From positions 64,001 to 128,000 of the forward strand of contig JBKBRF010000003.1 in NCBI GenBank assembly GCA_046292385.1: DNA of 64,000 nucleotides, read 5' to 3'. This DNA comes from Armatimonadota bacterium (lineage in GTDB: Bacteria; Armatimonadota; SYMT01). Below are positions 14,720 through 58,455 of the stretch, in pieces (the first letter of the stretch is position 1; each line of letters starts with the position of its first letter). Under the pieces are notes generated by a model. That model was not told the DNA's origin. It ran no database searches and worked only from the letters and a program-made list of their open reading frames with translations. Made by a program: the position numbers and the translations under genes.

Positions 14720-15703
14720 ATGGAACAGAAGGGAGATCCGCTTGTGAAGGCACAGTTTCCGGCGGAGACCGCGCAGGACGGCTCGTTCGTGCGCCAGGAG
14801 TACCAGTTCCGCGATCGCATCACCGCCGACGGCTCCTCCGGCTTCCCCGCGGAGCCGGGACGCTACCACCTCTACGTCTCGCTCGCCTGCCCGTGGGCCC
14901 ACCGGGCGATCATCGTCCGCCGCTTGCTGGGACTGGAAGAGGTGATCACGATGTCGGTGGTCGACCCGATCCGAAACGGGCACGGCTGGGCGTTCACGGA
15001 AGGACCGGGGCACGGTCCCGACCCGGTGAACGGCTTCCAGTTTCTCTCGGAGGCCTACCACCGGACCGATCCGGACTACCGGGGCCGCTACACGGTGCCG
15101 TGCCTCTGGGACCGGGAGACGGGGCGGCTCGTCACCAACAACTTCCCGGACATCACGATCGACATGGAGACGCAGTTCACCGCGTTCCACCGGCCGGGCG
15201 CGCCGGAGCTCTACCCGGAGGCGCTGCGGGAGGAGATCGACGCCGTGAACGCGCCGATCTACCGGGACGTGAACAACGGCGTCTACCAGGCCGGCTTCGC
15301 CACCACCCAGCGGGCCTATGAGCGGGCGGTGGAGGCGCTGTTCGCGCGGCTCGACTGGCTGGAGGAGCGGCTCTCCGCGCAGCGGTACCTGGTCGACGGC
15401 CGGCTCACCGAGGCCGACATCCGGCTCTTCACCACGCTGGTCCGCTTCGACAGCGTCTACTACGGGCACTTCAAGTGCAACCTGCGCCGGCTGGTCGACT
15501 ATCCCCACCTCTGGGGCTACACGCGCGATCTCTACCAGCGGCCGGAGTTTAGGGAGACGGTCGATTTCGACCACATCAAGCGCCACTACTACATGACGCA
15601 CGAGCAGATCAACCCCACCCGCATCGTGCCGAAAGGACCGCTCATCGATTGGGACGAGCCGCACCGTCGTGCAGAGCTCTCCGGAGACAGAGAGACGGAG
15701 TGA
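14720..15703 (+). CDS. yqjG: Glutathionyl-hydroquinone reductase (Xi/omega-class glutathione S-transferase)
   Basis: GRYHLYVSLACPWAHR, YTVPCLWD, VNNGVY.AGFA, LTEADIRLFTTLVRFD, FDHIKRHYY, INPTRIVP; start 14720 (ATG) or 14744 (GTG). Confidence 0.92.
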   Translation: MEQKGDPLVKAQFPAETAQDGSFVRQEYQFRDRITADGSSGFPAEPGRYHLYVSLACPWAHRAIIVRRLLGLEEVITMSVVDPIRNGHGWAFTEGPGHGPDPVNGFQFLSEAYHRTDPDYRGRYTVPCLWDRETGRLVTNNFPDITIDMETQFTAFHRPGAPELYPEALREEIDAVNAPIYRDVNNGVYQAGFATTQRAYERAVEALFARLDWLEERLSAQRYLVDGRLTEADIRLFTTLVRFDSVYYGHFKCNLRRLVDYPHLWGYTRDLYQRPEFRETVDFDHIKRHYYMTHEQINPTRIVPKGPLIDWDEPHRRAELSGDRETE

Positions 15704-15796
15704 CAGAGAGACGGAGTGACAGAGAGACGGAGTGACAGAGGGACGGGGAGAGGGAGACGGAGAGAGGGAGACGGAGAGACAGAGGGATGGAGAGAG
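15686..15796. repeat. 16-nt tandem repeat (GACAGAGAGACGGAGT)x3 plus degenerate octamers
   Basis: Read directly; overlaps the GST stop codon. Confidence 0.8.
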
Positions 15797-15832
15797 CCGG
15801 GCACGGAGACCCGGACTCTCCAAACCGCCCCT

Positions 15833-15907
15833 GCTCGCCAGGACATGTCGGGGTACCGCAGGTCGCCAGCGAGCAGGAGCAGGACCTCCCGCACACGGAA
15901 GGTTCGG
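15833..15907 (+). repeat. ~75-nt dispersed repeat, copy 2
   Basis: Matches the reverse complement of 13169-13248. Confidence 0.65.
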
Positions 15908-15909
15908 AC

Positions 15910-15996
15910 TTTAGCCTTTAGCCTTTTGCCTTTAGCCTTTTGCCTTTAGCCTTTTGCCTTTAGCCTTTTGCCTTTAGCCTTTAAAGGCCTTTTGCC
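15910..15996. repeat. Heptamer tandem repeat TTT(A/T)GCC, 10 contiguous units plus 1
   Basis: Mostly alternating tttagcc/ttttgcc units, ending a few nt from the AKR stop. Confidence 0.9.
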
Positions 15997-18335: not shown

Positions 18336-21300
18336 ATGTGGATCTCATCTTTGGCTGCGGAGGCGGTGCGCCGCGGCGCCTCGCGTCTGCTCTGCGGCGG
18401 CCTGCTGATCGCCGCCCCGCTGGCCGCCGCGGGCTCCGCGGCGCAGACTTCCGGTGCTGCCGGCGCCCCGGCGCCGCGGCCGTCGCTCGAGACGCCGCCG
18501 GTAGCGTTTGAGCGGAACCGCGGCCAGACCGATCCGGAGGCACGCTTCGTCGCGCGGGGGAGCGGCCACACGCTTTACCTGACCCCGCGCGAGGCGGTGC
18601 TGCAGCTTCGCGCCGGGCCGCCGCGGCGAGAGGCCCCCAGCGCGGCTCCGCGGCCGTTCAGCAAGGTGGAGACGGCGACGCTCCGCTTCTCCCTGGCGGG
18701 TGGGGCCCGGAGCCCCCGTCTGACGGGAGTGGAGCCTCTTCCCGGGACAGTGCGATACGTCCGCCGGGGAGAGGCGGCGCCGATTACCGCGGAGACCTTC
18801 GCGGGGGTGCAGTACGAGGAGGTCTATCCGGGGATCGACCTCCACTACTACGCCGCGGCGCGGCAGGTAGAGTACGACTTCGTGGTCGCTCCGGGCGCCG
18901 ATCCCCGGCGGATCCAGTGGAGGATCGAGGGAGCGCGGTCAGCCTCTCTCGAGCGGGGCGACCTGCTCCTGCGGACCGCCGCGGGCACCCTGCGCCACAC
19001 CCGGCCCGTCGCCTACCAGGAGATCGCAGGCGCCCCGAGGCCGATCCGCTGCGACTACACCCTTACTTCCTCTCGGCCGGGAGAGACACGGGTCTCGTTC
19101 CGCGTGGGGGAGTACGACCGCTCCCGTCCCCTCGTGATCGACCCGGTCGTCATCTTCGCCACCCCGTTCGGCGGCACCGGTCAGGATACGGTCAACGGCG
19201 TGGCGGTGGACCGGACCGGCGCGAGCTACTTGACCGGGCAGACCGCGTCGCTCGACTTCCCGACGCGGAACCCGATCCAGGCGGAGAAGAGCGGCGTGTT
19301 CGGCCTCTTTGACGCCTTCGTGACGAAGATCAATCCGACCGGCACCAGCTTGGTCTACTCCACCTACTTCGGCGGCACGTCGGACGACAGCGGACAGAAG
19401 ATCGAGGTCGATGCCGCGGGGGCCGCCTACGTGGTCGGCACCACCACGTCGAACGACTTTCCGGTGACGCCGCGGGTGGCCGACCGCAGCTACAACGGGC
19501 TGGAGGACGTCTTCGTGCTGAAGCTCGACCCGACGGGAACGGACGTGGAGTACTCCACCTACCTGGGCGGCTCCCGCAGCGACGTCGGGCTCGGGATCGC
19601 CGTCGATGCAAACGGGTTGGCTCACGTGGTCGGCTCCACCGAATCGCTCAACTTCCCGATCGGTGGGCGCTCCTTCGACCGCTCTCAGAACGGCCTGTCG
19701 GACGCGTTCCTGGTCCGGTTGAGCGCCGATGGGCGGACGGTGGATCTCGGCACCTTCCTGGGCGGCGACGGGTTCGACGTCGCCCGGGGGGTTGCGCTCG
19801 ACGCCGACGGCGCGATCTACCTGGCCGGCGGCACCGACTCGTTGAACTTCCCCACCACCTCCGGCGCGTTCGACCGCACCCGCGGTGGGATCCGGGATGC
19901 GTTCGCGGCGAAGCTGTCCCGCGGCGGCGGCTCGCTGGTGTACAGCACCTTCGTCGGCGGGTCGGCGAACGACGAGGCGTATGACGTGGCGGTGACCCCG
20001 GCCGGGGTGGCATGCCTGACGGGGGAGACCCGCTCGCTCGATTTCCCCACCACCTCGGGCGGCTTCGACCGGACCGGCAACTTCCCCACGCGGGATGCGT
20101 TCGTGGCCTGCCTCGCCCGCAATGGGGCCAGCCTGACTTACGGCACCTACCTCGGCGGCGTGGGCGACGACGTGGGGACGGGCATCGACCTCGACCCCGC
20201 GGGCCGGCTCTACGTGGCCGGGTTCACCGCGTCGGTCGACTTCCCGCTGAGAGAGCCGGTCGACGTGGAGAACGGCGGTCTCTACGATGCCTTCGCCGCG
20301 AGCTTCGCTCCCGGCGCCACGGGAACCGCCTCACTCCTCTATTCCACCTACTTCGGCGGCAGCGCCGACGACGCTGCGTTCGACGTGGCGGTCGACGAGA
20401 ACGGCAGCGCCTACCTCGCCGGCGAGACCTTTTCCTTCGACTTCCCGCGCGTCGAGCCGCTGCAGTCCGCTCTGCGGGGGGTTCGCGACGGGTTCCTGGT
20501 CAAGTTGGCGATCCTGCCGGGTCTCTCCGCGCCGAGAGACCTGACGGCGACGGCGGTTTCGGCTACGGAGGTCGAGCTCAACTGGGTCGACCAGAGCGCC
20601 GGGGAGAGCGGCTTCGAGATCGAGCGGCGCACGGAGACGACCGGCTTCACCCGGATTGCCACCACGGCCGCCAACGTGGAGCGCTTCCGGGACACCGGGC
20701 TGACGCCGGGTGTCCGCTACACCTACCGGGTGCGGGCGGTGGGACTGCGCGCCACCTCCGCCTACTCGAACGAGGCGTCCGTCGAGACCGCGTCCGGACC
20801 GCCCTCCGCGCCGGATCAGCTCCAGGCGGAGGCGGTGTCCAGCACCTCGATTTCGCTCACCTGGCGGGACACCAGCGCCAACGAGAGCGGCTTCCGGATC
20901 GAGCGGAAGACCGGGAACGGGAGCTTCACCCAGGTGGCGACGGTCGACGCGAACGTCACTTCCTACCTCGACACCGGGCTGTCGCCTGGCACGCGGTACA
21001 CGTACCGGGTGCGCGCGGTGAACGCGGCCGGAAGCTCGGCCTTCTCCAACGAGGCCTCCGCCACCACGTCGTCCGCGCCTCCGCCCGCCCCGGACCGGCT
21101 CGCCGCGAGGGCGCTCAGCAGCCGGAGGGTCGAGCTGACCTGGCGGGACCGCAGCACCAACGAGGAGAGCTTCGAGGTGGAGCGCCGGCTGGAGAACGGC
21201 ACGTTCCAGCGGGTCGCCGTGCTGCCCCCGAACACCACGCGCTACGAGGACCAGGGGCTGGAGCCGGAGACGGTCTACTTCTACCGGGTGCGCGCGGTGA

Positions 21301-22517
21301 ACGCGGGTGGGCCCTCGGCCTACACGGATGAGGTCCGCGTGGAGACCCTGTCGCCTCCGCCGCCGCCGGCGGCGCCGGAGGGGCTTGCCGCCGCGCCCCA
21401 GGGCTTCTTCCAGATCAACCTGCAGTGGCTGGACCGCAGCACCAACGAAGAGCAGTTCGAGATCGAGCGGCGCACGGCCGGCGGAGCGTTCGCGCGAGTG
21501 GCCACGGTGCCGGCGAACACCACGACCTTCGCCGACACGATGCTCCAGCCGGGCACCCTCTACTTCTACCGGGTGCGGGCGGTCAATGAGGGCGGAGAGT
21601 CGGCCTACTCCAACGTGGCGCAGGCTTCCACTGCCCCGCTGCCCCCGCCGCCCGCCGCGCCGGCCGGGCTGGATTGCGAGGTGCCTTCCACCTCGCAGGT
21701 CCGCCTCACCTGGCAGGACCGCAGCAACAACGAGGAGCGCTTCGTGATCCAGCGCCGGACCGGCACCGGAGCGTTCCAGCAGGTGGGGCAGGTCGCCGCC
21801 AACACCACCAGCTTCACCGACAGCGGGCTGGAGCCGAACACCCGGTACTTCTACCGGGTGGCGGCGGAGAACGCGGGCGGCACCTCCGCCTTCTCGGAGG
21901 TATGCGAGGCGCTGACGCTGCCTGCGGCCGCGACCAACCTGACCGGCGCCGCGCAGGGTCCGGACCGGATCGCGCTGATCTGGGTCGACAACAACCCCGG
22001 CAACGTGGCCTACCGGGTGGAGCGGTCGGAGGACGGCGGTGCCACCTTCCGCGTGGTCGGGGAGACCGCGCCGGGAGCGGTGACGTTCGAAGACACCGGG
22101 CTCCAGGAGGGGACCACCTACCGCTACCGGGTGCAGGCGGTGAACGCCTCCGGCACCTCCGGCTACTCCAACATCGTCTCGATCGCCACCCTGCCGCCGG
22201 CCGGCGGGAGCCTGCGGGTGGCCACACGGGTCAACTTCGGTCGCGTGCGGGTGGGGCGGAGCAAGACGGTTCGGCTGCTGGTGCGCAACGTCAGCCGCAG
22301 CGAGAGCCTTTCGATCTCGACGGAGCTGGAGGAGGGACCGTTCTCCGTGCTGGACGGCGGCACCGCGACGATCCCCCCGAACGGGCGCCACCGGATCACG
22401 CTCGTCTTCCGGCCGCAGACCCGCGGTCGCCAGCAGCGGACCCTCCTGCTCCGGAGCTCCGATCCGTCGCGCGCGGAGACCGCCGTCCGGCTTCGCGGGA
22501 ACGGCGTAAGACGCTGA
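18336..22517 (+). CDS. Secreted SBBP beta-propeller protein with six fibronectin type III domains and C-terminal ASH/Ig-like domain
   Basis: FERNRGQTD N-domain; repeated YSTYxGG...DAFVxK units; six AP.xL.A...LxWxDxS.NE.F.IER...YxYRVRAVN units; VNFGRVRVG...VRN...PFSV...FRP tail. Confidence 0.88.
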   Translation: MWISSLAAEAVRRGASRLLCGGLLIAAPLAAAGSAAQTSGAAGAPAPRPSLETPPVAFERNRGQTDPEARFVARGSGHTLYLTPREAVLQLRAGPPRREAPSAAPRPFSKVETATLRFSLAGGARSPRLTGVEPLPGTVRYVRRGEAAPITAETFAGVQYEEVYPGIDLHYYAAARQVEYDFVVAPGADPRRIQWRIEGARSASLERGDLLLRTAAGTLRHTRPVAYQEIAGAPRPIRCDYTLTSSRPGETRVSFRVGEYDRSRPLVIDPVVIFATPFGGTGQDTVNGVAVDRTGASYLTGQTASLDFPTRNPIQAEKSGVFGLFDAFVTKINPTGTSLVYSTYFGGTSDDSGQKIEVDAAGAAYVVGTTTSNDFPVTPRVADRSYNGLEDVFVLKLDPTGTDVEYSTYLGGSRSDVGLGIAVDANGLAHVVGSTESLNFPIGGRSFDRSQNGLSDAFLVRLSADGRTVDLGTFLGGDGFDVARGVALDADGAIYLAGGTDSLNFPTTSGAFDRTRGGIRDAFAAKLSRGGGSLVYSTFVGGSANDEAYDVAVTPAGVACLTGETRSLDFPTTSGGFDRTGNFPTRDAFVACLARNGASLTYGTYLGGVGDDVGTGIDLDPAGRLYVAGFTASVDFPLREPVDVENGGLYDAFAASFAPGATGTASLLYSTYFGGSADDAAFDVAVDENGSAYLAGETFSFDFPRVEPLQSALRGVRDGFLVKLAILPGLSAPRDLTATAVSATEVELNWVDQSAGESGFEIERRTETTGFTRIATTAANVERFRDTGLTPGVRYTYRVRAVGLRATSAYSNEASVETASGPPSAPDQLQAEAVSSTSISLTWRDTSANESGFRIERKTGNGSFTQVATVDANVTSYLDTGLSPGTRYTYRVRAVNAAGSSAFSNEASATTSSAPPPAPDRLAARALSSRRVELTWRDRSTNEESFEVERRLENGTFQRVAVLPPNTTRYEDQGLEPETVYFYRVRAVNAGGPSAYTDEVRVETLSPPPPPAAPEGLAAAPQGFFQINLQWLDRSTNEEQFEIERRTAGGAFARVATVPANTTTFADTMLQPGTLYFYRVRAVNEGGESAYSNVAQASTAPLPPPPAAPAGLDCEVPSTSQVRLTWQDRSNNEERFVIQRRTGTGAFQQVGQVAANTTSFTDSGLEPNTRYFYRVAAENAGGTSAFSEVCEALTLPAAATNLTGAAQGPDRIALIWVDNNPGNVAYRVERSEDGGATFRVVGETAPGAVTFEDTGLQEGTTYRYRVQAVNASGTSGYSNIVSIATLPPAGGSLRVATRVNFGRVRVGRSKTVRLLVRNVSRSESLSISTELEEGPFSVLDGGTATIPPNGRHRITLVFRPQTRGRQQRTLLLRSSDPSRAETAVRLRGNGVRR

Positions 22518-40069: not shown

Positions 40070-42229
40070 ATGTCACCCGCTCCGACCCCCCGTCTGTTTC
40101 CGGCGCTCGCCGCCGCGGCGCTCCTGCTTCCGCTCGCGGCCTCCGCTCGCACCGACCGGGTCACCGGACGGACGCCGGAGCCGGAGCTGCTGGTGCAGGC
40201 GCTCGACCGCTCGCTCTCCACCGCGGTGCTCAGCGGCGACGGCCGCTGGCTGATCACCGGCAGCGGAGACCGGCGCGTGCAGGTCTGGGACGCGCGCACC
40301 GGCCTGCTGACGCGCAACCTCCCCACCGGCGGCCCGGTGGCGGAGGTCGACCTCTCTCCGGATGCTCGCGTGGTCGCCGCGGGTGGACTGGAGGGAGCGG
40401 TCCGGCTGTGGGACCGCGAAACCGGCGCGGAGCGGGCCGTGCTGAAGACCGACCCGCAGGGCACCCTCTCCGTCCGCTTCTCCCCCGCCGGTCCGCACCT
40501 GGCGACCGCGGACCACCGCGGCGTGAAGCTGTGGCACGCCGGCACCGGCCGCTTCCTCCGGGCGCTGGAGGGCACGGGCGACTTTCTCTCCATCGGCCTC
40601 TATCCGGGCGTCGCCTTCTCCCCGGACGGAAAGCTCCTCGCCGCGCTTACCATGGAGGGCTGGGCGCTCTGGGATCCCGCCATCGGACGCAAGCTGCGCC
40701 AGCTCCCGAAGCAGCTGGACCGCGACACGGCGGTCGCCTTCTCGCGCGACGGCAAGCTGCTCGCGACCGCCCACGTCACCGCCCGGTACACGCTGCCGAC
40801 TGCCGAGATCGCCTTCTGGAGCACCGCCACCGGAAAGCGGGCCCGCGCCGTCACCACCGGGCAGGACGCTCTGATTTCCCTCGCCTTCGCGCCGGACGAC
40901 CGCACCCTGCTGGCCGGCACCCGCTTCTCCCGCGGCCTGCAGGTGTGGGACGTCCCCTCCGGAAAGCGGCTGCGGACCGTCGGAAGCCTCCCCGGAGCGG
41001 TCACCCTCTCCCGCGATGGCCGAACCCTGGCGGCGTGGAGCTCTGGATTCGGCGCTCCGCCGGAAGTCCGCACCTGGCGCGTCTCCGATTTGCGGACGAT
41101 GAAGACAATGCCCCTGGCGGCCCTCCCCACGCCGGCGGAGCCGGTGAGCGTGCTGCAGGCGGCCGGTGCCGGTAGCACGCTCGTGGCGGTGGGCGAGACC
41201 GGCCGCGCCTGGCGCTGGGACGGCGAGCGGGCGCGGCTGGAGCGAGCCGTTTCCCTGCCGGGCGGCGCGTATCAGCGCGTGGTCCTCTCCGCGGACGGCG
41301 CCACCGCGGCCGCTGCGTCGGTCGACTGCCTGACGGTCTGGGATACCGCGACGGGGCGGGTGCGTCGGACCTTCCGCTTCACCGGGGAAGACCTCGGCGA
41401 GTCGGTCGCCGCCCTCACGCCCGACGGCCGCCGCGTCGCCCTCGCCGACCGTGCCTACCCGGGCGACCGGAACCTCCTGTACCTGCGCTGGTGGAGCGTG
41501 GAGACCGGCGAGCAGCAGGGCGAGCTCCGCTGGCCGGAGACGGTGCCGCTGGCGCTCGCCGCCTCCCGGGAGGAGCTGATCCTGACCGTCATCAACGTGG
41601 AGCGCGAGCGCCGCGAGCTGCGAGGGGTCGACCTCCGCACCGGCCAGCTCCGGCGTACCCAACCGCTCGAAGGCTTCCCCGGCAGCGCCCTCGGCGTTTC
41701 ACCGGACGGAGCCACCGCCGCGGTGCCGATGCACGCGATCGTCGGTGACCACTGGGACTTCCCCGTCGACCTCTGGAGCCGGGAGCGCGACCGCCCCACG
41801 GCGCGGCTGCTCGGGTTCCGGCAGGTGCCGGAGAGCGTCACCTTCTCCACCTCCGGAGCGCGCGTTGCCGCTGGCGGCAGCGAGGGGACGGTGCGCGTCT
41901 GGAAGGCCGAAAGTGAGACCCCGCTCACTACCCTTCGCGCGCACCGGCGGGAAGTGGCGGCCCTCGCCTTCGTGGGGGAGAATCGCCTCGCCACCGCGGG
42001 CGGAGACGGCGAGCTCGCGCTCTGGGAGGTGCCCGGCGGGAAGCGGCTGGCGACGCTGCTGGTCTTTCCCTCCGGCGAGTGGCTCGCCTACCGGCCGGAC
42101 CACCGCTACACCGGCTCGCCGGGGATCGAGAAGCGCCTGGCGTGGAGGGTAGGCCGGCGGGTGGTCTCCGGCAGCAAATCTGGCGTGCGCTTCCGGGTGG
42201 AGAGGCTGCTCCCGCCACCGGGCGGTTGA
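40070..42229 (+). CDS. Secreted WD40-repeat protein
   Basis: GGAGG RBS, signal peptide, repeated FSPDG..LA...VxLWD units, C-terminal EWLAYRPD..YTGS. Confidence 0.85.
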   Translation: MSPAPTPRLFPALAAAALLLPLAASARTDRVTGRTPEPELLVQALDRSLSTAVLSGDGRWLITGSGDRRVQVWDARTGLLTRNLPTGGPVAEVDLSPDARVVAAGGLEGAVRLWDRETGAERAVLKTDPQGTLSVRFSPAGPHLATADHRGVKLWHAGTGRFLRALEGTGDFLSIGLYPGVAFSPDGKLLAALTMEGWALWDPAIGRKLRQLPKQLDRDTAVAFSRDGKLLATAHVTARYTLPTAEIAFWSTATGKRARAVTTGQDALISLAFAPDDRTLLAGTRFSRGLQVWDVPSGKRLRTVGSLPGAVTLSRDGRTLAAWSSGFGAPPEVRTWRVSDLRTMKTMPLAALPTPAEPVSVLQAAGAGSTLVAVGETGRAWRWDGERARLERAVSLPGGAYQRVVLSADGATAAAASVDCLTVWDTATGRVRRTFRFTGEDLGESVAALTPDGRRVALADRAYPGDRNLLYLRWWSVETGEQQGELRWPETVPLALAASREELILTVINVERERRELRGVDLRTGQLRRTQPLEGFPGSALGVSPDGATAAVPMHAIVGDHWDFPVDLWSRERDRPTARLLGFRQVPESVTFSTSGARVAAGGSEGTVRVWKAESETPLTTLRAHRREVAALAFVGENRLATAGGDGELALWEVPGGKRLATLLVFPSGEWLAYRPDHRYTGSPGIEKRLAWRVGRRVVSGSKSGVRFRVERLLPPPGG

Positions 42230-42235
42230 GGTTAG

Positions 42236-42528
42236 CTGCTTCTTCGCCTCGGGAGCAGCGTCGAGCCCGGGCGCCCGACCCCGCGCCCTTGTCGGCGGAG
42301 CCAGCCCTCCCGCGGCGGGTGCCCTCCGCGGCCTTTTCACGCGCCTTCGGCGCTAGCAGGCCGCTCCGGGAGTGCGTTTCGGTACGCTCTTCCCGCGCCA
42401 CCGCCGTGATCTACCCTTCGGCTCTGCTCACGGGCTGGCTCCGCCGCCTTCGAGCGAACTCCCCTGGGCCCAGGGGAGTTCACAGGGGCCGTCCTCCGGT
42501 CCAGCCTGCGGCTGCACCTCCCGACGCC
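42236..42528. repeat. ~295-nt structured dispersed element, copy A (candidate ncRNA or non-autonomous element)
   Basis: Colinear with the reverse complement of 57963-58259; exact shared 20-mer gccctccgcggccttttcac and 17-mer cgctagcaggccgctcc; perfect 26-bp palindrome at 42456-42481. Confidence 0.7.
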
Positions 42529-42709
42529 AGAGCGAGGCACGACTGAGTCCCCGGATGGGACCCTCTAATCCGGGGGGACAAACGCCGGGTTGTGTTGCTC
42601 CCGCTCCTCCCGCCCGCGGGGGCCCACCCCGGCCGAAGAGGGGTTCCTCTCTCTGCGTCGAACGAGACGGTACGCCGAAGCCCGCGTCGCCCGGCGTGAG
42701 GAGGTCCCG

Positions 42710-49346: not shown

Positions 49347-49365
49347 TCCTGTCGCGCCTCTCTCG

Positions 49366-50355
49366 CTACCGGACGCGAGGGAGCGAAGCCGCCTCGGTGG
49401 AGGGCGCCTCTCCCACGCGGGGGAGCGCGGCGGGGTCGGTGGTGGGCTGTCCCGGCAGCGGGAGCCGCTTGAGCTCTTCGGTCAGCGACTCGATGCGCTC
49501 CACCGCGTCGCGGGTCGTCTCCCGAGTTTCGGTGTCCTGCTGGAGGAGGTCGGCGGAAATGCCGCGCAGCTCCGGCAGCACCTCCCGCAGCTCCACTGCC
49601 GGCCTCCGCGCGCCGATCTGGCAGAGGGCCGACGTGATTGCCTGGATCAGGCGGCCGCGGCTCCGGCGGCGGTGCAGGTAGAGGTAGGCGGCGGCGAGCA
49701 CCAGGAGGACGAAGGCGGGGCCGAACAGCCGCCCGGGGCCGGTGGTGGCGATGAGCCCCACCAGCAGCAGCAGCACGCCCGTAAGGAACGCCGGTCCGAA
49801 GACGAGCTGCTTCCAGGCCGCGCCGCCCACCAGGCACGCTCGCAGCGCCTCCCGCAGGGGCGGGATCGCCGTCTCGTCCCCGATCTCCCCCAGCACCTGC
49901 GCGGCATTGATGCGGGAGTGCTCTTCCGGGTCCCAGAGCAGGCACCGCCGCGGCAGCTCGCCGAGCCACGAGAGGATCGAGCCAGGCTGCTCGTTCCGCG
50001 GCGGCGGCTGCAGGAGCGCCGCCACCGCGGCGATCCCCTCCGGTCCGAAGTGGCGCAGCCCCTGCGCCGCCCGATGCGCCCGGACCGAGTCGCCCCACCG
50101 CACTCCCCGCAGCAGCGCCTCCAGCCCGGAAGCGCCCAGCGCTGCGAAGGCGGCGGTCGCCTCCGCCCGCACGGCTGCGTCTTCATCGGCTAGCGCTTCC
50201 CAGAGGGCGTCGGTCGCGTCCTCGCCGCCGAGGCGCAGCTCCCGCACCACCCGCAGACGCTCGGTGGGGTCGCCTCTCCGCAGGCGGCCGGTGAGGGTGG
50301 CTACCTGCATCCGGCGCACCCGGCGCTTCCGGTACTCGGTCTTCGAACTGGCCAT
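49366..50355 (-). CDS. HEAT/PBS-lyase-repeat membrane protein, array member 1 (numbered by coordinate)
   Basis: HEAT units, TM pair, conserved LPLP/LPRVG/LPRVR tail; start at MASSK (50355) inferred. Confidence 0.8.
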   Translation of the reverse strand: MASSKTEYRKRRVRRMQVATLTGRLRRGDPTERLRVVRELRLGGEDATDALWEALADEDAAVRAEATAAFAALGASGLEALLRGVRWGDSVRAHRAAQGLRHFGPEGIAAVAALLQPPPRNEQPGSILSWLGELPRRCLLWDPEEHSRINAAQVLGEIGDETAIPPLREALRACLVGGAAWKQLVFGPAFLTGVLLLLVGLIATTGPGRLFGPAFVLLVLAAAYLYLHRRRSRGRLIQAITSALCQIGARRPAVELREVLPELRGISADLLQQDTETRETTRDAVERIESLTEELKRLPLPGQPTTDPAALPRVGEAPSTEAASLPRVR

Positions 50356-50378
50356 CCGCTGGTTCTCCGCGCCGGGCC

Positions 50379-51347
50379 TCAGACCCGCGGCAGGGCGCGG
50401 GCGTCCGGCGTGGGCGCCTCGCCGACCCGGGGGAGGGAGGTGCCCACGCCGGAGACGCAGCCCGGCAGCGGCAGGTTCGACCCCTCCGTGAGCGCCTCGA
50501 TTCGCTCCGCCGCCGCCCGCGAGGCCTCCCGCGCCTTCGGGTCGCTCTGAAGGCGGTCGCGCTCGATCGACTGCAGGTCCGGCAGCAGCGTGCGCAGCTC
50601 CGGAGCGGGGCAGCGCTCCCCGATCCGCAGCAGGGCGTCCACGATCGACTGTCGCGCGAGGCTCTGCCTGCGCTGAGAAGTGAAGTACTGGAACGCAATG
50701 TTGATGATACTCATCGCAACCATGGCGAGTGAGCCTTGGAAGCCCAGCCAAACCTGTCCGAGGAGGGTTAGAGGCATGACCAGCACCGCGACCAGGAGCA
50801 CCGTCCAGCCGATCACCACCTGGCGGCGTCCTGATCGTCCCAGCAACTGCCCGCGCAGCACCTGCATGAGCGGCTCCACCGCACGCTGGTCCCCGAATTC
50901 TCCCAGGGCTTCCACGGCCGCGTGTCGAGCCGCTGGATCGTGGAGCGCCCGGCAGAGGAGCGGGACCGACTGCGGCAGGGCCAGCCGCTGGAGCGATTTC
51001 ACCGCCGCTACGCGCACGCCGTCGTCCGCCTGGCCCAGCGCGTCTTCCAGCGGCCCCAGCGCCTCCGGCCCGAAGAACCCGAGCGCCCAGGCCGCCTCCC
51101 GCCGCTCGCTGGCGTGACGGCTCCGCACCCGCACCGCCAGGCTCTCGAGTGCGACGGGGCCGATCCGGGCGAGCGACTTTGCCGACGCGGCACGGACCTC
51201 TTCCTCGTCGTCGCGCAGCGTCTCCAGCAGGCACGGCACCGCGGCGCGGCCGAAGTCTCCCAGCGCTCGCGCAGCCGCCTTTCGCTCCGCCTTTGCGCGC
51301 GACCGGAGCTGAATCCTCAGGTTCTGAAGCTGATCCGTGGGAGTCAT
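50379..51347 (-). CDS. HEAT-repeat membrane protein, array member 2
   Basis: As above; GGAG-like RBS. Confidence 0.85.
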   Translation of the reverse strand: MTPTDQLQNLRIQLRSRAKAERKAAARALGDFGRAAVPCLLETLRDDEEEVRAASAKSLARIGPVALESLAVRVRSRHASERREAAWALGFFGPEALGPLEDALGQADDGVRVAAVKSLQRLALPQSVPLLCRALHDPAARHAAVEALGEFGDQRAVEPLMQVLRGQLLGRSGRRQVVIGWTVLLVAVLVMPLTLLGQVWLGFQGSLAMVAMSIINIAFQYFTSQRRQSLARQSIVDALLRIGERCPAPELRTLLPDLQSIERDRLQSDPKAREASRAAAERIEALTEGSNLPLPGCVSGVGTSLPRVGEAPTPDARALPRV

Positions 51348-51411
51348 CCGCCGCTCCGAGGCCGCTGCCGGCAGGGCGCCGGTCCGTTACAGTTCGCGCT
51401 CCACGCGCCCC

Positions 51412-52158
51412 TCACCTCACCCGCGGCAGCGTGTCCGCCTCCGGCGTGGGAGCCTCTCCCACGCGCGGGAGGGTGGCCTCGTGCTGCGTCCCGGAGGCCG
51501 GCAGCGGGAGGCTTTTCAGGTTGTCGGTAAGCTCCCGAATACGCCGTGCGGCCTTCTCGGAAACAGGCCGGGTGCTCGGGTCTTGCTGCACCCAGCCGCT
51601 CCCGATCACCCGCAGATCCCGAATCACCTGCCGAAGCTCCGGCGTGGGATGCCGCTCCCCAATCCGCACCAGCGCGTCGATCAACGCGCGCCTTCCCTGC
51701 CCCCGTCCACGCCAGTCGAGAACCCTGCCGATCAAAGCCTGTCCCAGCCCGGTCAGGATGCCGACCAACCAATACTCCTTCAGATCCAACAGCCTATGCG
51801 CTATCACGGAGGCGTTAATGATGACGAGCATGGTCGCGAGGCACATCAGCCAGCCAAAGGCCAGGTGCCGCCAGGCGGAGCGGCCCACGAGGCTCGCGCG
51901 CAGTGCTTCCTGCAGCGGTCCAATCGCGCGTTCGTCTCCCACCTCCGCCAGCGCCTCGGCCGCCGCGAACCGGACGCGCGGCTCGCGGTCCCGCAGTGCC
52001 CGGCAGAGGGGCGGTACCACTTCCGGCCGCGGCAGACGCCGGAGCGCCTCCACGGCGGCCAGCCGCGCTCTGGCGCACGGCGATCGGAGCGCCGTCTCCA
52101 GCGCCGGCAGGTCCGGAAGCGGTGCAGGCTCGGTGAGCGTGGCCAGGGGAGAGAGCAC
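51412..52158 (-). CDS. HEAT-repeat membrane protein, array member 3 (short N-terminus)
   Basis: Fewer HEAT units; same TM pair and tail; start uncertain. Confidence 0.78.
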   Translation of the reverse strand: MLSPLATLTEPAPLPDLPALETALRSPCARARLAAVEALRRLPRPEVVPPLCRALRDREPRVRFAAAEALAEVGDERAIGPLQEALRASLVGRSAWRHLAFGWLMCLATMLVIINASVIAHRLLDLKEYWLVGILTGLGQALIGRVLDWRGRGQGRRALIDALVRIGERHPTPELRQVIRDLRVIGSGWVQQDPSTRPVSEKAARRIRELTDNLKSLPLPASGTQHEATLPRVGEAPTPEADTLPRVR

Positions 52159-52187
52159 GGGAGTTCTCGCAAGAAGCAGTTGGCCGG

Positions 52188-53285
52188 TTACCGGATTCTG
52201 GGCAGCGTCTGCGGGTCCGCGGCGGGCGCCTCTCCCACGCGCGGGAGAGTGGCTTCACCAGGGGACGCGTCCGCCGGCAGGGGGAGATCTTTCAGGTCTT
52301 TGGTAAGCTCTTCGATGCGACGCACGGCCTTGCGGGACGCCAGGGACATCGCCGTATCCTGCTGAAACCACCGGGACGCCATGAGACGCAAGTCCGGCAG
52401 GGCCGCGCGGAGCTCCAGGGAGGACTGACGTTCCCCGATCCGCACCAGCGCCTCCATTACCGCGCTAACTACCTCTCCGCGACGGCGGCGGTTGACTACG
52501 GAAACCGCGACCGCGTTTCCGATCATAACGAGGAATCCGCCCAGGTAGTCCAGATCCCACTTGAATGCTGTCAGCAGGAGAAGGAAGAGCGCAGGTCCAG
52601 AACCCAGGCCGAACAGAAGGCTAACCCAGAGGTGCCGCCTGGAAGAGCGTCCTACCAGCCCGTCTCGGAGCAGCTCCTGGAGCGGTCCGACGGCCGCTGC
52701 GTCCCCAACGTCCCCCAGCGCCTGGACTGCGGCCAGGCGGACGCGCGGGTCGCGGTCCTTCAACGCCTCGCAGAGGGGTGGAGCCGTTTCCGGCAGCCCC
52801 AGGCTCCGCAGCGCTTCCACGGCAGCGAGGCGGACGCGGTGGTCCCGGTCCCGCAGCGCGCCGCAGAGGAGCGGAGGCACCTCCGGCAGCCCCAGGCTCG
52901 GGAGCGCCTTCGCCGCCGCTACCCGCGTTCGCCAGGACCAGGAGGTTATCGCCCGCTCCAGCGCCGGCAGCGCGGCCGGGCCGTAGTGACTGAGTGCCCA
53001 GGCGGCGCACTCCCGCTCCACCGCGGTGGCCCCATCCAGACGCACCTCCAGCGCGGCCAGGGCCGGCGCGCCGATCCTGGCGAGAGAGAGCGCCGCGGCG
53101 AGGCGCACCTCCTCGTCGGAGTCAAAGAGGGCGCCGCAGAGGAGCTCCACCGCCTGCTCGCCGCAGTGGCCCAGCGCTTCCGCCGCGGCGGCCCGCTCCG
53201 ACACCTCCCGCGACTGGAGCCGCGCTTCCAGGCTCGCCAGCGGGGCGGGCTCCGTCTCGGGAAAGGTTGCTCTGGTCGAGATCAT
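52188..53285 (-). CDS. HEAT-repeat membrane protein, array member 4 (extra HEAT unit)
   Basis: Internal duplication SLGLPE..P.LC.AL.DRD.RVRLAAV; start 53285 or 53312. Confidence 0.85.
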   Translation of the reverse strand: MISTRATFPETEPAPLASLEARLQSREVSERAAAAEALGHCGEQAVELLCGALFDSDEEVRLAAALSLARIGAPALAALEVRLDGATAVERECAAWALSHYGPAALPALERAITSWSWRTRVAAAKALPSLGLPEVPPLLCGALRDRDHRVRLAAVEALRSLGLPETAPPLCEALKDRDPRVRLAAVQALGDVGDAAAVGPLQELLRDGLVGRSSRRHLWVSLLFGLGSGPALFLLLLTAFKWDLDYLGGFLVMIGNAVAVSVVNRRRRGEVVSAVMEALVRIGERQSSLELRAALPDLRLMASRWFQQDTAMSLASRKAVRRIEELTKDLKDLPLPADASPGEATLPRVGEAPAADPQTLPRIR

Positions 53286-53315
53286 GGCTGCGCTCGAAGG
53301 AGCCTCACGCAACTT

Positions 53316-54332
53316 TCACCGGACCCTGGGCAGCGTCTGCGGGTCCGCCGACGGTGCCTCGCCGACCCGCGGGAGAGACGCCTCGTCTCCCGAGGCAGTG
53401 CCGGGGAGGGGGAGAGTTTTCAGGCTCTCGGTGAGGGCCTCGATCCGTTGGATGGCCGCCCGGGATACCTGCCGGGTCTCTCTGTTCTGCACGAGTGGGT
53501 CCGAGACCATCCGGCGCAGGTCCGGGAGCACCTGCCGCATCTCCGGGCTCGGTCGTCTTTCGGCGATTTTCACCAGAGCCTCGGTGACGGCCTGCGTCAC
53601 TCTGCCTCGCTGCTGAATGCGCTCACGACTGCAGTCCACCGCGATGCCGAATCCGAACACCACCGCCCACACCGCCCATACCGCAGTCACGACCGCCAGG
53701 TCTCCTGTCAGCATGCGCAGGAGCAGGAATCCGCTCAGTGCCAGCACGAGAAAAACCGTGGGGCTCAACCGCCAGCGCCGGGTGAAGGGTCCGCCCACGA
53801 ATTCGGACCGGAGCAGGTCGTGGAGCGGGCGCACCGCCGTCTCGTCGCCGATAGCTCCCAGCGCCTCCACGGCGGCGATCCGCACGCGCGGCTCACGGTC
53901 GGTCAATGTCCGGAGGAGATGCGGCACCACCTCCGGCAGATGCAAGCGTCCGAGCACCTGCACCGCGGCCAGCCGGGTGTCCCAGACGCTCGATTCCAGG
54001 GCGCCGGCCAGGACCGGCACTGCCGCCGGTCCGCAGTAAGCCAGCGCCCACATCGCCCGCTCTCGGGTCTCGGCCGCGTCACTCTCCATCCTCGCCGCCT
54101 GCGCGCGGATCGCCGGAGAGCCGATTCTGCCGAGCGACTGCGCCGCCGCGATCCGCACCGCCTCGTCGGGGTCGTAGAGCGCCGCGCAGAGCGCCTGCAC
54201 CGCCGGGCCGCCGCGGCTCCCGAGTGCCTCCGCCGCAGCCAGCCGGTCCGACGCAGCCGCCGACCGCAGCCGGGTCTTGAGCTCCGCCAGGTCGGGGCCG
54301 GGATGCGGCGTCGCGGGGTGGAGCTCGCTCAT
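53316..54332 (-). CDS. HEAT-repeat membrane protein, array member 5
   Basis: ATGA overlap with member 6; same architecture. Confidence 0.87.
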   Translation of the reverse strand: MSELHPATPHPGPDLAELKTRLRSAAASDRLAAAEALGSRGGPAVQALCAALYDPDEAVRIAAAQSLGRIGSPAIRAQAARMESDAAETRERAMWALAYCGPAAVPVLAGALESSVWDTRLAAVQVLGRLHLPEVVPHLLRTLTDREPRVRIAAVEALGAIGDETAVRPLHDLLRSEFVGGPFTRRWRLSPTVFLVLALSGFLLLRMLTGDLAVVTAVWAVWAVVFGFGIAVDCSRERIQQRGRVTQAVTEALVKIAERRPSPEMRQVLPDLRRMVSDPLVQNRETRQVSRAAIQRIEALTESLKTLPLPGTASGDEASLPRVGEAPSADPQTLPRVR

Positions 54333-55435
54333 CGGACTCGGGGGAGGTGGTCGGCGTCCGCGTGGGGCGCGTGACCGACCCGTGGGAGCGAGGCGTCGTC
54401 GACGGAGGCAGCGGCGGGGAGCGGGAGGTCCTTCAGGCTTTCAGTAAGCCCTCCGATCCGGCGGGCGGCCGTGCGAGAAGCCTCCCGCGTTTCTGCGTCC
54501 TGCTGGATCGGATCGGCTGCCATCCGGCGCAGGTCGGGGAGCACCGCCCGCATTCCGGGACTTGGTCGTCGTTCCGCAATCGCCGAAAGGGCTCCGGTGA
54601 CGGCTCGCGCCACCGATCCTCGCTCCGTCCGATTCCGTAGATACTCCACCAGGACCAAGAGCAGCGCTACGAGACTCAGGATCGATCCCCGATCCTTCTG
54701 GAATAGTCCCGGAAGAAGCCCAGCAGCCGTGCCGAAGAGTACCAGACACAGGGGAAGAGCCAACCACCGACGGCGACCACTCAAGCCACCCACGAAGCCG
54801 GACTGTAACACTTCCAGGAGCGGTCGAACTGCCCTCTCGTCGCCGACCGCACCCAGCGCTTGCGCTACGGCGATCCGAATCCTCGGTTCGTTCTCCTCCA
54901 AGAGCCGGCAGAGGTGTGGCGTCACTTCCGGCTGACCGAGAGTTCCCAGCGTCTTCGCGGCGGCACCGCGGGTATCCCCGTATTTTGCTTCCAGGGCGTC
55001 AACCAGGATCGGCACTGCCGCCGGTCCGCAGTAAGCCAGCGCCCAGACCGCTCGCTCGCGGGTCTCGGAGCTTTCACTTTCCAACCGCGCGGCGAGCGCC
55101 CATATCCCCGGAGAGCCGATTCTGCCGAGCGACTGCGCCGCCGCGATCCGCACCGCCTCGTCGGGGTCGTTGAGCGCCGCGCAGAGCACCTGCACCGCTG
55201 GGCCGCCGCAGCTCCCGAGCGCCTCCGCCGCGGCCAGCCGCTCCGACGCAGCCGCCGACCGCAGCCGGGTCTGGAGTTCCGCCACGTCGGGGCCGGGATG
55301 CGGCGTCATAGAGTGAAGCTCGCTCATCGGACTCGGGGGAGGTGGTCGGCGTCCGAGTGGGGCGCCTGACCGACCCGTGGGAGCGAGGCTTCGTCGACGG
55401 AGGTGCCGCCGGGGAGCGGGAGGTCCTTCAGGTTT
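54008..55435. repeat. ~430-bp imperfect direct repeat (54008-54440 / 55003-55435, 995-bp period)
   Basis: Long identical stretches, e.g. ccggagagccgattctgccgagcgactgcgccgccgcgatccgcaccgcctcgtcggggtcgt and gctcgctcatcggactcgggggaggtggtcggcgtccg. Confidence 0.85.
54329..55327 (-). CDS. HEAT-repeat membrane protein, array member 6
   Basis: ATGA overlap with member 7; N-terminus nearly identical to member 5. Confidence 0.87.
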   Translation of the reverse strand: MSELHSMTPHPGPDVAELQTRLRSAAASERLAAAEALGSCGGPAVQVLCAALNDPDEAVRIAAAQSLGRIGSPGIWALAARLESESSETRERAVWALAYCGPAAVPILVDALEAKYGDTRGAAAKTLGTLGQPEVTPHLCRLLEENEPRIRIAVAQALGAVGDERAVRPLLEVLQSGFVGGLSGRRRWLALPLCLVLFGTAAGLLPGLFQKDRGSILSLVALLLVLVEYLRNRTERGSVARAVTGALSAIAERRPSPGMRAVLPDLRRMAADPIQQDAETREASRTAARRIGGLTESLKDLPLPAAASVDDASLPRVGHAPHADADHLPRVR

Positions 55436-56337
55436 TCGGTGAGAGCTTCGATCCGCTCAACCGCCGCGCGAGAGGCTTCACGGGTGCGGGGGTCGTGCTG
55501 GAGGCGGTCCTTCGCCACCACCCGCAGGTCCGGCAGCACCCGTCGCAGCTCGGGAGTCGGCGTCCGCTCGCCGATTTGCACCAGCGCCTTCGTCACCGCG
55601 CGAGAGTAGTCGCCGGTCTGCCGGCGCGACGCAAAGTACGAGTGGATCCGGCTGGTGAAGCCGGCCATGCTGCCGAAGAGGAACCCTCCCGCTCCGGCGA
55701 GCTCACTCTCGAAAGCGGCTCCCATGGCGACGCAGAACAGCGCTCCCCAACCGATCGCGACGAGGAGGCCCAGTCGAAGCTGTCGCTCGGCCGAGCGACC
55801 GACGAAGCAGCTCCGCAGCGCCTTGCAGAGCGGTCCGATCGCGCGCTCATCGCCGATCTCTCCGAGGGTCCAGGCGGCGGTCGACCGGGCGTAGTAGTCC
55901 CCGTCGCGCAGCATCTCACACAACAGCCGGGTGGTCTCCGGCCGCTTCAGCCGGCGGAGTGTTCGGAACGCAGCATTTCGCACTTCGCTGTCGGAGGACC
56001 GCAGCGCTTGCACCAGCGGCTTCAGCGCCTCCGAGCCGCAGAAGCCCAGTGCCCAAGCCGCCTTCCGCGGCTGGAGGAAGCTCCCGCAGTCGAGTAGCTC
56101 CGTCAGCGCTTCGATTGCGGGGCCGCCAAGGGTGCCGAGCGCCCGCGCGGCGGCGAGGCGCACTTGCTCGTCGGGGTGGTTCAGAGCGCGGCAGAGCGGC
56201 TCCACGGCACCGGCCTCCGCCAGGTCCGCGACGGCGGCAAGACACTGGTCCGGATCGTCCGACCGCAACCGCGCCTCCAGCCGGCGGAGCTCGGCCGGGA
56301 GCGCTCTTTCGCAAAGTGTGGCGCCGTTTACGGACAT
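55324..56337 (-). CDS. HEAT-repeat membrane protein, array member 7
   Basis: Same architecture; C-terminus nearly identical to member 6. Confidence 0.87.
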   Translation of the reverse strand: MSVNGATLCERALPAELRRLEARLRSDDPDQCLAAVADLAEAGAVEPLCRALNHPDEQVRLAAARALGTLGGPAIEALTELLDCGSFLQPRKAAWALGFCGSEALKPLVQALRSSDSEVRNAAFRTLRRLKRPETTRLLCEMLRDGDYYARSTAAWTLGEIGDERAIGPLCKALRSCFVGRSAERQLRLGLLVAIGWGALFCVAMGAAFESELAGAGGFLFGSMAGFTSRIHSYFASRRQTGDYSRAVTKALVQIGERTPTPELRRVLPDLRVVAKDRLQHDPRTREASRAAVERIEALTENLKDLPLPGGTSVDEASLPRVGQAPHSDADHLPRVR

Positions 56338-56366
56338 AACTCTACTCTACCGGAACCGTGTCGCTC

Positions 56367-57353
56367 CTACCGGACCCGGGGCAGCGATTGCTTCGCTGGC
56401 GCCGGCACGGCGCCCGGGCGGGGAAGCGTGTCGGCGCTGGAGTTAGGCTCCGCCGGGAGGGGGAGGCTGGTGAACGGGTCGGTCAACTCCTGGATCCGGC
56501 GGGCCGCTTCTTGCAAAGCCTCACGGGTAGCGGGCTCCTGCTGGAGACGGTCCGCGGCGATAAGCCGCAGGTCTCGCAGCACGCCCCGCAGCTCCGGACT
56601 GGGTCGGCGCTCTCCGATCCGCACCAGCGCTTCCGCCACGGCGCGAGAGAGCTCTCCCTGCGCTCGCCGCCGGTTGAAGTAGGCGTGGAACGCCCAGCCA
56701 ATCCATATCGCGGGAAGGAGCCCGCCGATCCGGGCCACGATGGTGCTGTAGATAAGACCGGAGAGCACCGCCGCGGCCAGGATCAGCATGAGGCCGCCGG
56801 TCACCGCCTGCAGGACGACCGACCCACCGACGAGCGACTCGCGCAGGGCGCTGCAGAGCGGCTGAACGGCGCGCTCATCGCCGATCTCTCCGAGAGCGCG
56901 CACCACCGCCACGCGCACTCGCCAGTCGTGGTCCCGCAGCATCCGGATGAGCACCGGAACGCACTCCGGCAGCGCCAGCCGCTGCAGCGCCTCCGCTACC
57001 GTCCGACGGAGGGTGGGGTCGAGAGAGCTCCTCGCCCACTCCAGAGCTTCCACAGCGGCGGGACCGCAGAAGCCGAGCGCCCATGCCGCGCTGCAGCTCA
57101 CGCTGCTCACCCCGGTCTTCAAGCGCCAGGTCAGCCGTCGGATTGCGGGGAGGCCCAGCTGCGCCAGCGCGTGAGCGACGGCGGTGCGGACCCCCTCGTC
57201 CTCGTCGCTCAGCGCACGGCAGAGCGGGTCGATCCCGCGCTCCCCACACGCGGCGAGCGCCTCCGCCGCGGCCCGCCGCTCGGCCGGATCTTCCGAGTCG
57301 AGGCGTGCCGTGTAGAGGTGGACTTCGTTCCAGCTCGGGGGAGTGGGTGCCAT
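56367..57353 (-). CDS. HEAT-repeat membrane protein, array member 8 (first transcribed)
   Basis: Same architecture. Confidence 0.85.
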   Translation of the reverse strand: MAPTPPSWNEVHLYTARLDSEDPAERRAAAEALAACGERGIDPLCRALSDEDEGVRTAVAHALAQLGLPAIRRLTWRLKTGVSSVSCSAAWALGFCGPAAVEALEWARSSLDPTLRRTVAEALQRLALPECVPVLIRMLRDHDWRVRVAVVRALGEIGDERAVQPLCSALRESLVGGSVVLQAVTGGLMLILAAAVLSGLIYSTIVARIGGLLPAIWIGWAFHAYFNRRRAQGELSRAVAEALVRIGERRPSPELRGVLRDLRLIAADRLQQEPATREALQEAARRIQELTDPFTSLPLPAEPNSSADTLPRPGAVPAPAKQSLPRVR

Positions 57354-57416
57354 GGTCGGTGACGGGCCGTCCGGTCTCCGTTACTGAAACGGCGAAATCC
57401 CTCCGTCGTTGCGGGG

Positions 57417-57830: not shown

Positions 57831-57962
57831 GCGTTCGTTGCAAGCACCCGGGTCAAGGAAGGGTGCCCTCGAGAGGGTTGTTCGCCAGCCGTGCGCCAAA
57901 TCCCGCCGCGAATCGCGATGAAATGGCATGGCCAGTGCTTCGGATCCGCACCAGAAACCCGC

Positions 57963-58259
57963 GGCGTCCGCAGGTGCAGCCGTTAGGCTGCGCCGGAGGA
58001 TGCCACCTGTGACCACCCCTTGGGAAAGGGGTGGTTGCTCGAAGGGCCGGGGGGCAGCCCGTGAACCCTGCCTCTGGCCCAGTAGAGCGCAGTGGCGCGG
58101 GTACGGCAAACCGGAAGGCACGCCTGGAGCGGCCTGCTAGCGGAGCGAAGCGGAGTGTGAAAAGGCCGCGGAGGGCCTTCGTCGCGGGAGGGCTGCCCCC
58201 CGGCACAAGGGCACGGGGTCGGACCTCCGACACCAACGCTGGTCCTCGGCAAGAGGCAG
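57963..58259. repeat. ~295-nt structured dispersed element, copy B (inverted relative to copy A)
   Basis: See copy A; hairpin accacccctt-ggga-aaggggtggt corresponds to the copy A palindrome. Confidence 0.7.
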
Positions 58260-58455
58260 AATCCTGCGGCACACGGCTGCTCATCCCGAGGCCCTGCTGG
58301 CGCGGGGCGCGAAAGCAAGCCTCCGTACTGGGGGCAAGCATTCGCACTCCAGGGACCAGACCGAGGCGTCGTCTGGTATACCCTTGCCCGGATTGGTTCT
58401 CGACAGAGATGCTGTAGGCCAGCGATAGCTGTCGAAGAGAAGCACATCGCACCCG

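Follow-up and report, generated by a model that had tools for sequence, protein, structure and literature searches.

A large family of structured intergenic repeats in an Armatimonadota genome, represented by two solo copies in a 64-kb window

The stretch of DNA analysed here (the window, 64,000 nt) is C3:64001-128000 of a 7.04-Mb Armatimonadota assembly that consists of 91 contigs, is 98.45% complete and has a G+C content of 69%. Two inversely oriented copies of a non-coding element lie in it, copy A at 42236..42540 and copy B at 57950..58262; both are solo copies of one subfamily, X (cluster 2), with the folding strand minus for A and plus for B. Employing an nhmmer profile built from 70 near-full copies, we matched A at C3:106251-106532 (window 42251-42532) and B at C3:121955-122255 (window 57955-58255). 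A covariance model, R1 (182 positions), recognised A at 42282-42458 on the minus strand (156 bits) and B at 58034-58215 on the plus strand (174 bits). The two copies were 73.4% identical across 286 nt (blastn, E 5e-40), which confirmed the colinear similarity over about 285 nt described in an earlier note on this DNA, and the exact 20-nt block named there was found at 42321-42340 and, reverse-complemented, at 58157-58176. In an inverted-repeat search of the window, the arms 42252-42345/58152-58245 (94 nt, 77%) and 42351-42404/58089-58142 (54 nt, 81%) of A and B were the two longest inverted repeats.

Copy A is located between two plus-strand ORFs, and the 3' end of its folding strand is 7-22 nt away from the stop codon of the first of these (ORF 40070-42229). 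Copy B is located between divergent genes. In the orientation adopted earlier, the distance from the end of the copy to the next ATG is 183 nt for A (ATG at 42711) and 132 nt for B (ATG at 57831), in agreement with the 130-180 nt reported. The element had also been described as present twice. This was correct for the window, in which R1 gave exactly two full matches (A minus, B plus), but not for the genome, in which blastn with copy A returned 126 segments and the profile returned 154 matches. The folding strand and the copy number, which had been beyond the reach of the earlier note, are now settled.

A 64-nt fragment at 11658-11721 (minus strand), which matched the profile in its P2/P1 portion (E 6e-4), is probably a decayed remnant of the element. 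Elsewhere in the window, about eight paralogous genes of about 1 kb at 49350-57400 (minus strand) form direct-repeat families with a spacing of about 1000 nt and end about 0.6 kb from copy B. Two adjoining tandem tracts are present at 15670-15985, one of 8-nt units of the GACAGAGA/GACGGAGT type, followed by one of 14-nt CTTT(T/A)GCCTTTAGC units. At 20570-22172 there are five to six tandem repeats of about 279-285 nt with 62-73% identity, which look like a run of repeated protein domains in a long gene.

The fold of the element was deduced from A2, a MAFFT alignment of the proposed folding strand of 59 copies. Each module of about 290 nt forms about nine helices: a 5' hairpin (P1), a second hairpin (P2) and those of a core. 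P3 and the long-range helix P4/P5 (15 bp) close this core, and P4/P5 encloses several hairpins and invariant loop motifs. RNAalifold predicted 42 pairs on A2, 21 of them with double compensatory changes. P1 aligns poorly across subfamilies in A2 and was left out of the formal count, in which 41 base pairs were scored on the 59 copies: 97.5% of 2410 cells were paired, compared with 83.9% in shuffled alignments (0 of 500 shuffles reached 97.5%) and 35.5-49.6% in slid controls. Double compensatory changes were seen in 21 of the 41 pairs, and the covariation score was 0.386 versus 0.144 in shuffles. Twelve of the 15 pairs of P4/P5 carried double compensatory changes; in P2 (A2 columns 81-89/115-123), 4 of the 9 pairs did so, with 97.7% of cells paired. 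Mutual information across 116 copies revealed base-paired columns with three or four Watson-Crick types each, and for P1 the column pairs 267-303 and 280-290 of this 116-copy alignment covaried. The covariation support is unusually strong because a single genome supplies over a hundred diverged copies.

In copy A (minus strand), the P1 region extends over 42498..42530, with an inner stem (42514-42510 with 42506-42502) in the single-sequence fold, and P2, supported by covariation in A2, occupies 42456..42481. The core domain (42285..42455) is closed by P3 (42455-42452 with 42288-42285) and contains the 15-bp P4/P5 (42446-42432 with 42307-42293; A2 covariation), a variable hairpin region, P7, P8 (42364-42358 with 42334-42328) and P9. 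The 3' hairpins at 42241..42284 pair 42279-42273 with 42266-42260 and 42284-42281 with 42258-42255. In copy B (plus strand), P1 (57963..58004) appeared in both the MFE and the centroid fold, with 7 outer base pairs (57963-57969 with 57998-58004) and 9 inner ones (57973-57981 with 57986-57994). P2 (58011..58036) and the core domain (58037..58212) were supported by both A2 covariation and the single-sequence fold; within the core are P3 (58037-58040 with 58209-58212), P4/P5 (58046-58060 with 58190-58204), P8 (58129-58135 with 58163-58169) and P9 (58140-58142 with 58156-58158). A 5-bp 3' hairpin follows at 58218..58231, seen in the fold and in the 3'-end alignment of 38 cluster-2 copies, and then a terminal hairpin of variable sequence at 58244-58256. 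The stem noted earlier for its compensatory changes between A and B is P2, and the gcggcct/aggccgc pairing noted as kept in both is P8; for both, the family as a whole bears out the observation.

The folding strand could be told from the mismatches. On A2 there were 2154 Watson-Crick, 195 G-U, 12 A-C and 49 other cells, and pairing fell to 89.9% if the opposite strand was folded; in the orientation of copy A, the long helix showed 6 G-T versus 71 A-C. G-U being far above A-C, A folds on the minus strand and B on the plus strand. The RNAalifold energies of the three subfamilies were -84, -87 and -89 on the folding strand versus -54, -70 and -59 on the opposite one; for single copies, the MFE was -179 kcal/mol on the minus versus -162 on the plus strand for A (z -5.3), and -176.2 kcal/mol on the plus versus -162.6 on the minus strand for B (z -5.8). 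Since the G-T wobble is also the mildest mismatch in DNA, this strand signal is the same for RNA and for single-stranded DNA.

Searches of Rfam 15 returned no known family: there were zero matches in the window at gathering thresholds, chance matches only for A and B in E-value mode (best E 0.65), and three unrelated weak matches, none recurring, for 20 loci with copies from three genomes in E-value mode. These results, together with the many compensatory changes that maintain the fold, uphold the proposal that the element belongs to a structured family. We found no description of this particular family in full-text literature searches or in Rfam 15.

The 154 nhmmer matches in the genome, 134 of which are at least 227 nt long, are distributed over 48 of the 91 contigs and make up 0.57% of the genome. 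Two of them lie 5 kb from each other, at C4:165352-165644 and C4:170582-170874. Thirteen matches lie within 600 nt of a contig end, and several elements end exactly where the contig does; the assembly breaks in the repeat, and the true copy number is therefore higher. Pairwise identity among copies has a median of 64%, whereas identity to the nearest neighbour has a median of 83% and a maximum of 96%. The 116 full-length copies clustered into three subfamilies, Y (52 copies), X (38, including A and B) and X2 (23). Arranged by locus, there are 82 solos and 26 pairs. The geometry was identical in all 26 pairs, tail to tail in the orientation of copy A, which is head to head on the folding strand, and the profile matches were 10-87 nt apart in 25 of them. 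All 24 classifiable pairs joined Y to X or X2, never like with like, and a run of GC-rich hairpins forms the pair centre. Ancestrally, the unit probably combined two differentiated modules, X and Y, head to head, and the solos are probably single-module derivatives of it.

Blastn with copy A against 30 relatives gave no match, because the family is too diverged for a single-copy query. We therefore used a composite query and then R1 across 101 Armatimonadota genomes, scoring at most 26 candidates per genome, so that the counts are lower bounds. R1 matched in 3 of the 101 genomes: the source genome, G005 of a sister genus (at least 15 matches) and G006 of another (at least 8 matches). All three belong to one family, of which 7 genomes were included; the other four, among them G001 of the same genus as G006, showed no R1 match, nor did the 94 genomes of other Armatimonadota families. 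The fold is kept in three genera. In G005, 4 of 4 head-to-head pairs joined its two local types on a FastTree tree of the core of about 180 nt. In this tree, which is short and midpoint-rooted, copies grouped by genome, as would result either from homogenisation of the two types within genomes or from their having differentiated twice, alternatives between which the tree cannot decide. In G006, same-strand tandem arrays have units 428-567 nt apart, two of which are 97% identical (L057:278-1757); this points to recent tandem duplication rather than dispersal. In a wider collection with the genomes of 185,579 species, a first exact-motif pattern gave no match. A looser one gave 5 loci in this collection, of which 2, both in one Armatimonadota MAG record, were true by the covariance model, and the other three (two in Photobacterium and one archaeal) were rejected by it as chance matches. 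The exact-motif scan found nothing in viral contigs and, in metagenomes, 3 loci with 4 copies that were true by the covariance model.

Several signs of mobility were found. A composite of X2 and Y of about 800 nt is present in 11 copies with 85-89% identity over the whole length and with the same left and right ends. The Y solos retain the first 48 nt or so of the composite left end and the whole right end; as judged from these ends, they are internal deletion derivatives that keep both termini. The two arms of a pair, each of about 290 nt, are inverted homologues and could be read as very long imperfect inverted repeats. In the X solos such as A and B, the 3'-end alignment of 38 cluster-2 copies showed neither terminal inverted repeats nor a target duplication. 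Most but not all of the 11 composites have a short CTGT-like motif at both ends, the same motif throughout, and it therefore looks like a specific target or a part of the element rather than a random duplication. Degenerate tandem heptamers of the TCTGTGT/CCCTCTG type often surround the composites (for example at L042:1250-1470 and at L042:2100-2250); per 400 nt, the heptamer motif reached a density of 1.46 beside pairs, versus 0.24 in background spacers and 0.10 beside X solos.

On one contig, C40, eight copies in the same orientation are spread over 26 kb (C40:13668-40014; L086:4669-19001 and L087:1149-12014). Six of the eight are in spacers of a phage-like morphogenesis cluster, which encodes a terminase large subunit, an SPP1-type portal, a capsid protein and a tail-completion protein (gp17), and one lies between the terminase and portal genes. 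Outside C40, neighbouring solos within 20 kb were in the same orientation in 8 cases and in opposite orientations in 9, so that co-orientation is due to C40 only. Relatives of the C40 portal were found as a single copy in 14 of 200 other Armatimonadota genomes, with 36-53% identity in the eight checked (tblastn). No terminase was detectable upstream of the portal in these relatives, and the terminase-portal spacer has no counterpart there for comparison.

Sequences from other sources were compared at the junctions of A and B. DNA nearly identical to that of the source genome is present in soil, root and hot-spring samples. Contigs from other samples keep the left junction of A (X3) and one junction of B (X4). 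Among short contigs from four DNA runs, none of the joints listed skips the element, and no empty site or insertion polymorphism was seen at A or B. At one locus from a metagenome (L035), a flanking gene is the same as on C43 of the source genome; there is no synteny beyond it, and no empty site.

The copies are not associated with a candidate enzyme. The genome has no reverse transcriptase (PF00078, 0 matches; control positive in 3 genomes), and on this ground we rejected a retroelement-derived repeat, whether SINE-like, an ORF-less group II intron or a retron. All three element-positive genomes carry Y1 transposase genes, but strong Y1 matches also occurred in the element-free genomes G002 and G004; the Y2_Tnp model gave no match in any of the 7 family genomes, and its controls were equally silent. 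Neither neighbourhood nor presence and absence in the 7 family genomes linked a mobilising enzyme (Y1_Tnp, IS110) to the element.

Among the readings considered, that of a mobile element, already proposed in the earlier note, is the best supported: copies are numerous, subfamilies have expanded in bursts, deletion derivatives keep the fixed ends, and only some of the relatives carry the element; mobility itself is deduced from these patterns in the sequence. We see about an even chance that A and B are old solo copies of a structured mobile repeat that is non-autonomous and confined to one lineage. Such an element would spread as DNA by means of a trans-acting enzyme that recognises the folded single strand; as the genome is without reverse transcriptase, a single-stranded DNA intermediate is somewhat more likely than an RNA one. 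The fold would be kept since only lineages that retain it go on multiplying, and most inserted copies would be near-neutral passengers, which may be co-transcribed. Counting against a plain mobile repeat, a strand-specific fold of nine helices with invariant loops exceeds the needs of a classical MITE or REP.

The same elaborate, strand-specific fold and invariant unpaired motifs would suit structured RNA genes that form a very large family, are expressed independently and serve the cell, for instance as protein-binding or scaffold RNAs; X and Y would then be differentiated paralogues, frequently in head-to-head arrangement. The presence of the fold in three genera, and of heterotypic X-Y pairs in two, is also in keeping with such genes. 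Private (singleton) changes bear on this question. In core columns they amounted to 0.26-0.41 per column; compared between core and variable columns in X and X2, the values were 0.26 versus 0.61 and 0.28 versus 0.38. The depletion in the core was about two-fold in X2, less clear in X and absent in Y. The depletion in X and X2 suggests some, at most weak, selection on resident copies, as RNA genes would have it, whereas its absence in Y speaks against them. Since private changes are found even in core columns, much of the diversity predates insertion and arose in propagating lineages. No conserved promoter was detected upstream of P1: in solos, conservation stops about 10 nt before P1, and in pairs the centre consists of the GC-rich hairpins. 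A scan for sigma-70-type promoters and intrinsic terminators, with other promoter types outside its range, was negative in and beside A and B. A cellular role also accords poorly with the copy numbers (at least 134 in one genome, at least 15 and at least 8 in the two relatives that have the element, none in the remaining four genomes of the family), and with copies at contig ends and within the phage-like cluster. We consider RNA genes rather unlikely.

The position of the copies relative to genes was examined with a crude gene call based on GC3, which gave 5189 genes and 82% coding sequence. By this call, all copies are intergenic and many are near gene ends. The spacers of solos were of the types ++ (17), +- (15), -- (13) and -+ (11). 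Relative to the folding strand, the 5' neighbour was co-directional in 33 solos and divergent in 23, and on the 3' side 29 solos had a co-directional neighbour and 27 a convergent one. Where the two flanking genes were co-directional with each other, the folding strand was sense in 18 cases and antisense in 12. No neighbour gene family recurred, the largest similarity cluster among 419 flanking proteins having 10 members at inconsistent positions. Solos also tended to fold on the locally C-rich strand, with a ratio of 48:21 within +/-10 kb (p 0.002) that changed to 35:21 at 50 kb and to 14:17 at 100 kb. As it is gone at 100 kb, the bias is not a replichore effect; it may reflect local gene-strand composition.

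A cis-regulatory leader, one of the possibilities raised earlier, is not borne out by these data. The orientation in which each copy lies upstream of a gene is the reverse of the folding strand, there is neither an orientation bias nor a recurring neighbour gene, and all kinds of intergenic spacers are occupied. A riboswitch or leader in the strict sense, with a fixed position, in sense, upstream of a recurring class of genes, fails on strand, orientation statistics and gene association alike. For annotation, this means that neither A nor B should be labelled as the leader of a neighbouring gene.

A broader form of cis action was considered as well. REP/BIME, ERIC and bcr1 repeats are thought to act as cis elements in neighbouring mRNAs, and the copies described here might serve in this way as 3'-end stabilisers, processing sites or insulators, whatever their mode of spread. 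Their intergenic location, in many cases close to gene ends, with A ending 7-22 nt from a stop codon, would suit such a role, and a transcript that enters a pair, whichever the side, will read the distal arm in its folding orientation. However, A folds on the strand antisense to both of its neighbouring ORFs, the folding strand of B faces away from the adjacent gene start, and the 18 versus 12 count between co-directional genes shows no sense bias. In the 23 of 56 solos with a divergent 5' gene, read-through cannot make RNA in the folding sense. Taken together, these observations make a cis-acting RNA element quite improbable.

A bolder proposal is that the X-Y pair constitutes a two-part nucleic-acid machine, in which outward-reading structured RNAs or folded strands would direct or catalyse their own propagation without a protein encoded by the element, or would recruit a host enzyme in an undescribed way. 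We regard this as a long shot. If it were true, the 130-plus copies would represent an RNA-centred mobile element of a new class and not a protein-dependent MITE.

Both modules of the composite read outward to the element ends, which would also fit stand-alone guide-type RNAs of the omega-RNA or bridge-RNA kind reading into flanking DNA, and HEARO/omega RNAs are likewise multi-copy. The enzymes that such guides serve were looked for. TnpB was absent from the genome (PF07282, 0; PF01385, 0; controls positive), and PF14239 (RRXRR/IscB) gave 0 matches in the genome, with control genomes equally silent for this model. Two IS110 genes, on C91 and at C6:74.6 kb, have no copy of the element nearby, and IS110 is absent from the element-positive G005. 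The proposed search for copies beside IscB, TnpB, IS110 or reverse transcriptase genes thus found none adjoining and no recurrent neighbour. An IS110 bridge RNA was rejected on the location of the IS110 genes and their absence from G005, and an OMEGA guide RNA (HEARO/omega-RNA) on the lack of TnpB in the genome, of IscB/TnpB beside copies and of an Rfam match, including E-value mode on the 20 loci. Guide-type RNAs of either kind are accordingly very unlikely. The last alternative, remnants of a decayed, repeated protein-coding gene, may be dismissed for practical purposes: long open frames do cross the element, but they are expected by chance at 69% G+C, the many 1- and 2-nt indels between copies rule out a coding remnant, and variation is organised as compensatory base pairs and not by codon position.

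Small folded repeats in bacterial genomes have been little explored, most of all those of uncultured phyla, and the present family, with its units of about 290 nt and about nine helices, is unusually large for its kind. Should it be no more than mobile, it can still serve to trace genome dynamics and assembly breaks in Armatimonadota, and it offers clean material for testing structure prediction; should the fold have a function as RNA or belong to a new chemistry of mobilisation, the family opens a way to study it. The obligate pairing of two differentiated modules, found in two genera, is an organisation not described for REP or MITE.

Comparison with known systems places the family as follows. 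HEARO/omega RNAs (RF02033, IscB) are about 300 nt long, with an elaborate fold, many copies and mobile-element behaviour. The element resembles them in size, elaborate fold, number of copies per genome and mobile-element behaviour, but it gave no covariance-model match, and no IscB/TnpB was found in the genome or beside copies (for IscB, with a model silent in the controls). The attC sites of integrons are simple hairpins of 57-141 nt in one array next to intI. They share with the element folding of one strand and a structure conserved above sequence, and the eight co-oriented C40 copies between unrelated genes recall such an array; unlike attC sites, the copies are spread over 48 contigs, the C40 genes are for phage morphogenesis and not cassettes, and solos elsewhere are not co-oriented.

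REPs are simple palindromes of 20-40 nt that flank their RAYT (Y1) gene. The element is ten times larger and multi-branched, the arms of its pairs come from different subfamilies, and it does not flank Y1 genes. Two intact Y1 (IS200-like) genes of the source genome, at C51:25843-26414 and C22:55966-56474, are bracketed by short inverted repeats, parts of which (29-113 nt) have 23 and 74 matches in the genome and no similarity to the element of about 290 nt. Judging from their arrangement, these Y1 genes and their own short repeats are a RAYT/REP-like picture and a second, unrelated repeat system. Membership of the element in the REP/REPIN-RAYT system was rejected on unit size, on the multi-branched fold and on the Y1 genes being flanked by other short repeats. 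What it has in common with REP, BIME and REPIN sequences (reviewed in PMC3184786; see also PMC3733652) is a dispersed extragenic location, the occurrence of inverted doublets and singlets, and single-strand folding.

In kind, the element also resembles bcr1 of the Bacillus cereus group. According to the review PMC3184786, where Okstad 2004, Klevan 2007 and Kristoffersen 2011 are cited on repeats of the bcr1 type, bcr1 is transcribed, measures about 155 bp and has 5-bp direct repeats as well as two stem-loops. Both bcr1 and the element are lineage-restricted, multi-copy, intergenic and gene-less, with a distribution that differs among relatives and a compensatory fold. Unlike bcr1, the present element, known here from DNA, has about 290 nt, about nine helices, heterotypic head-to-head pairs and solos in which no target duplication was detected. 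Many non-coding copies, no linked gene, a conserved fold and restriction to one lineage are nevertheless the hallmarks of the broad class of structured dispersed intergenic repeats (bcr1, ERIC, Correia and RPE-like), and the family displays all of them.
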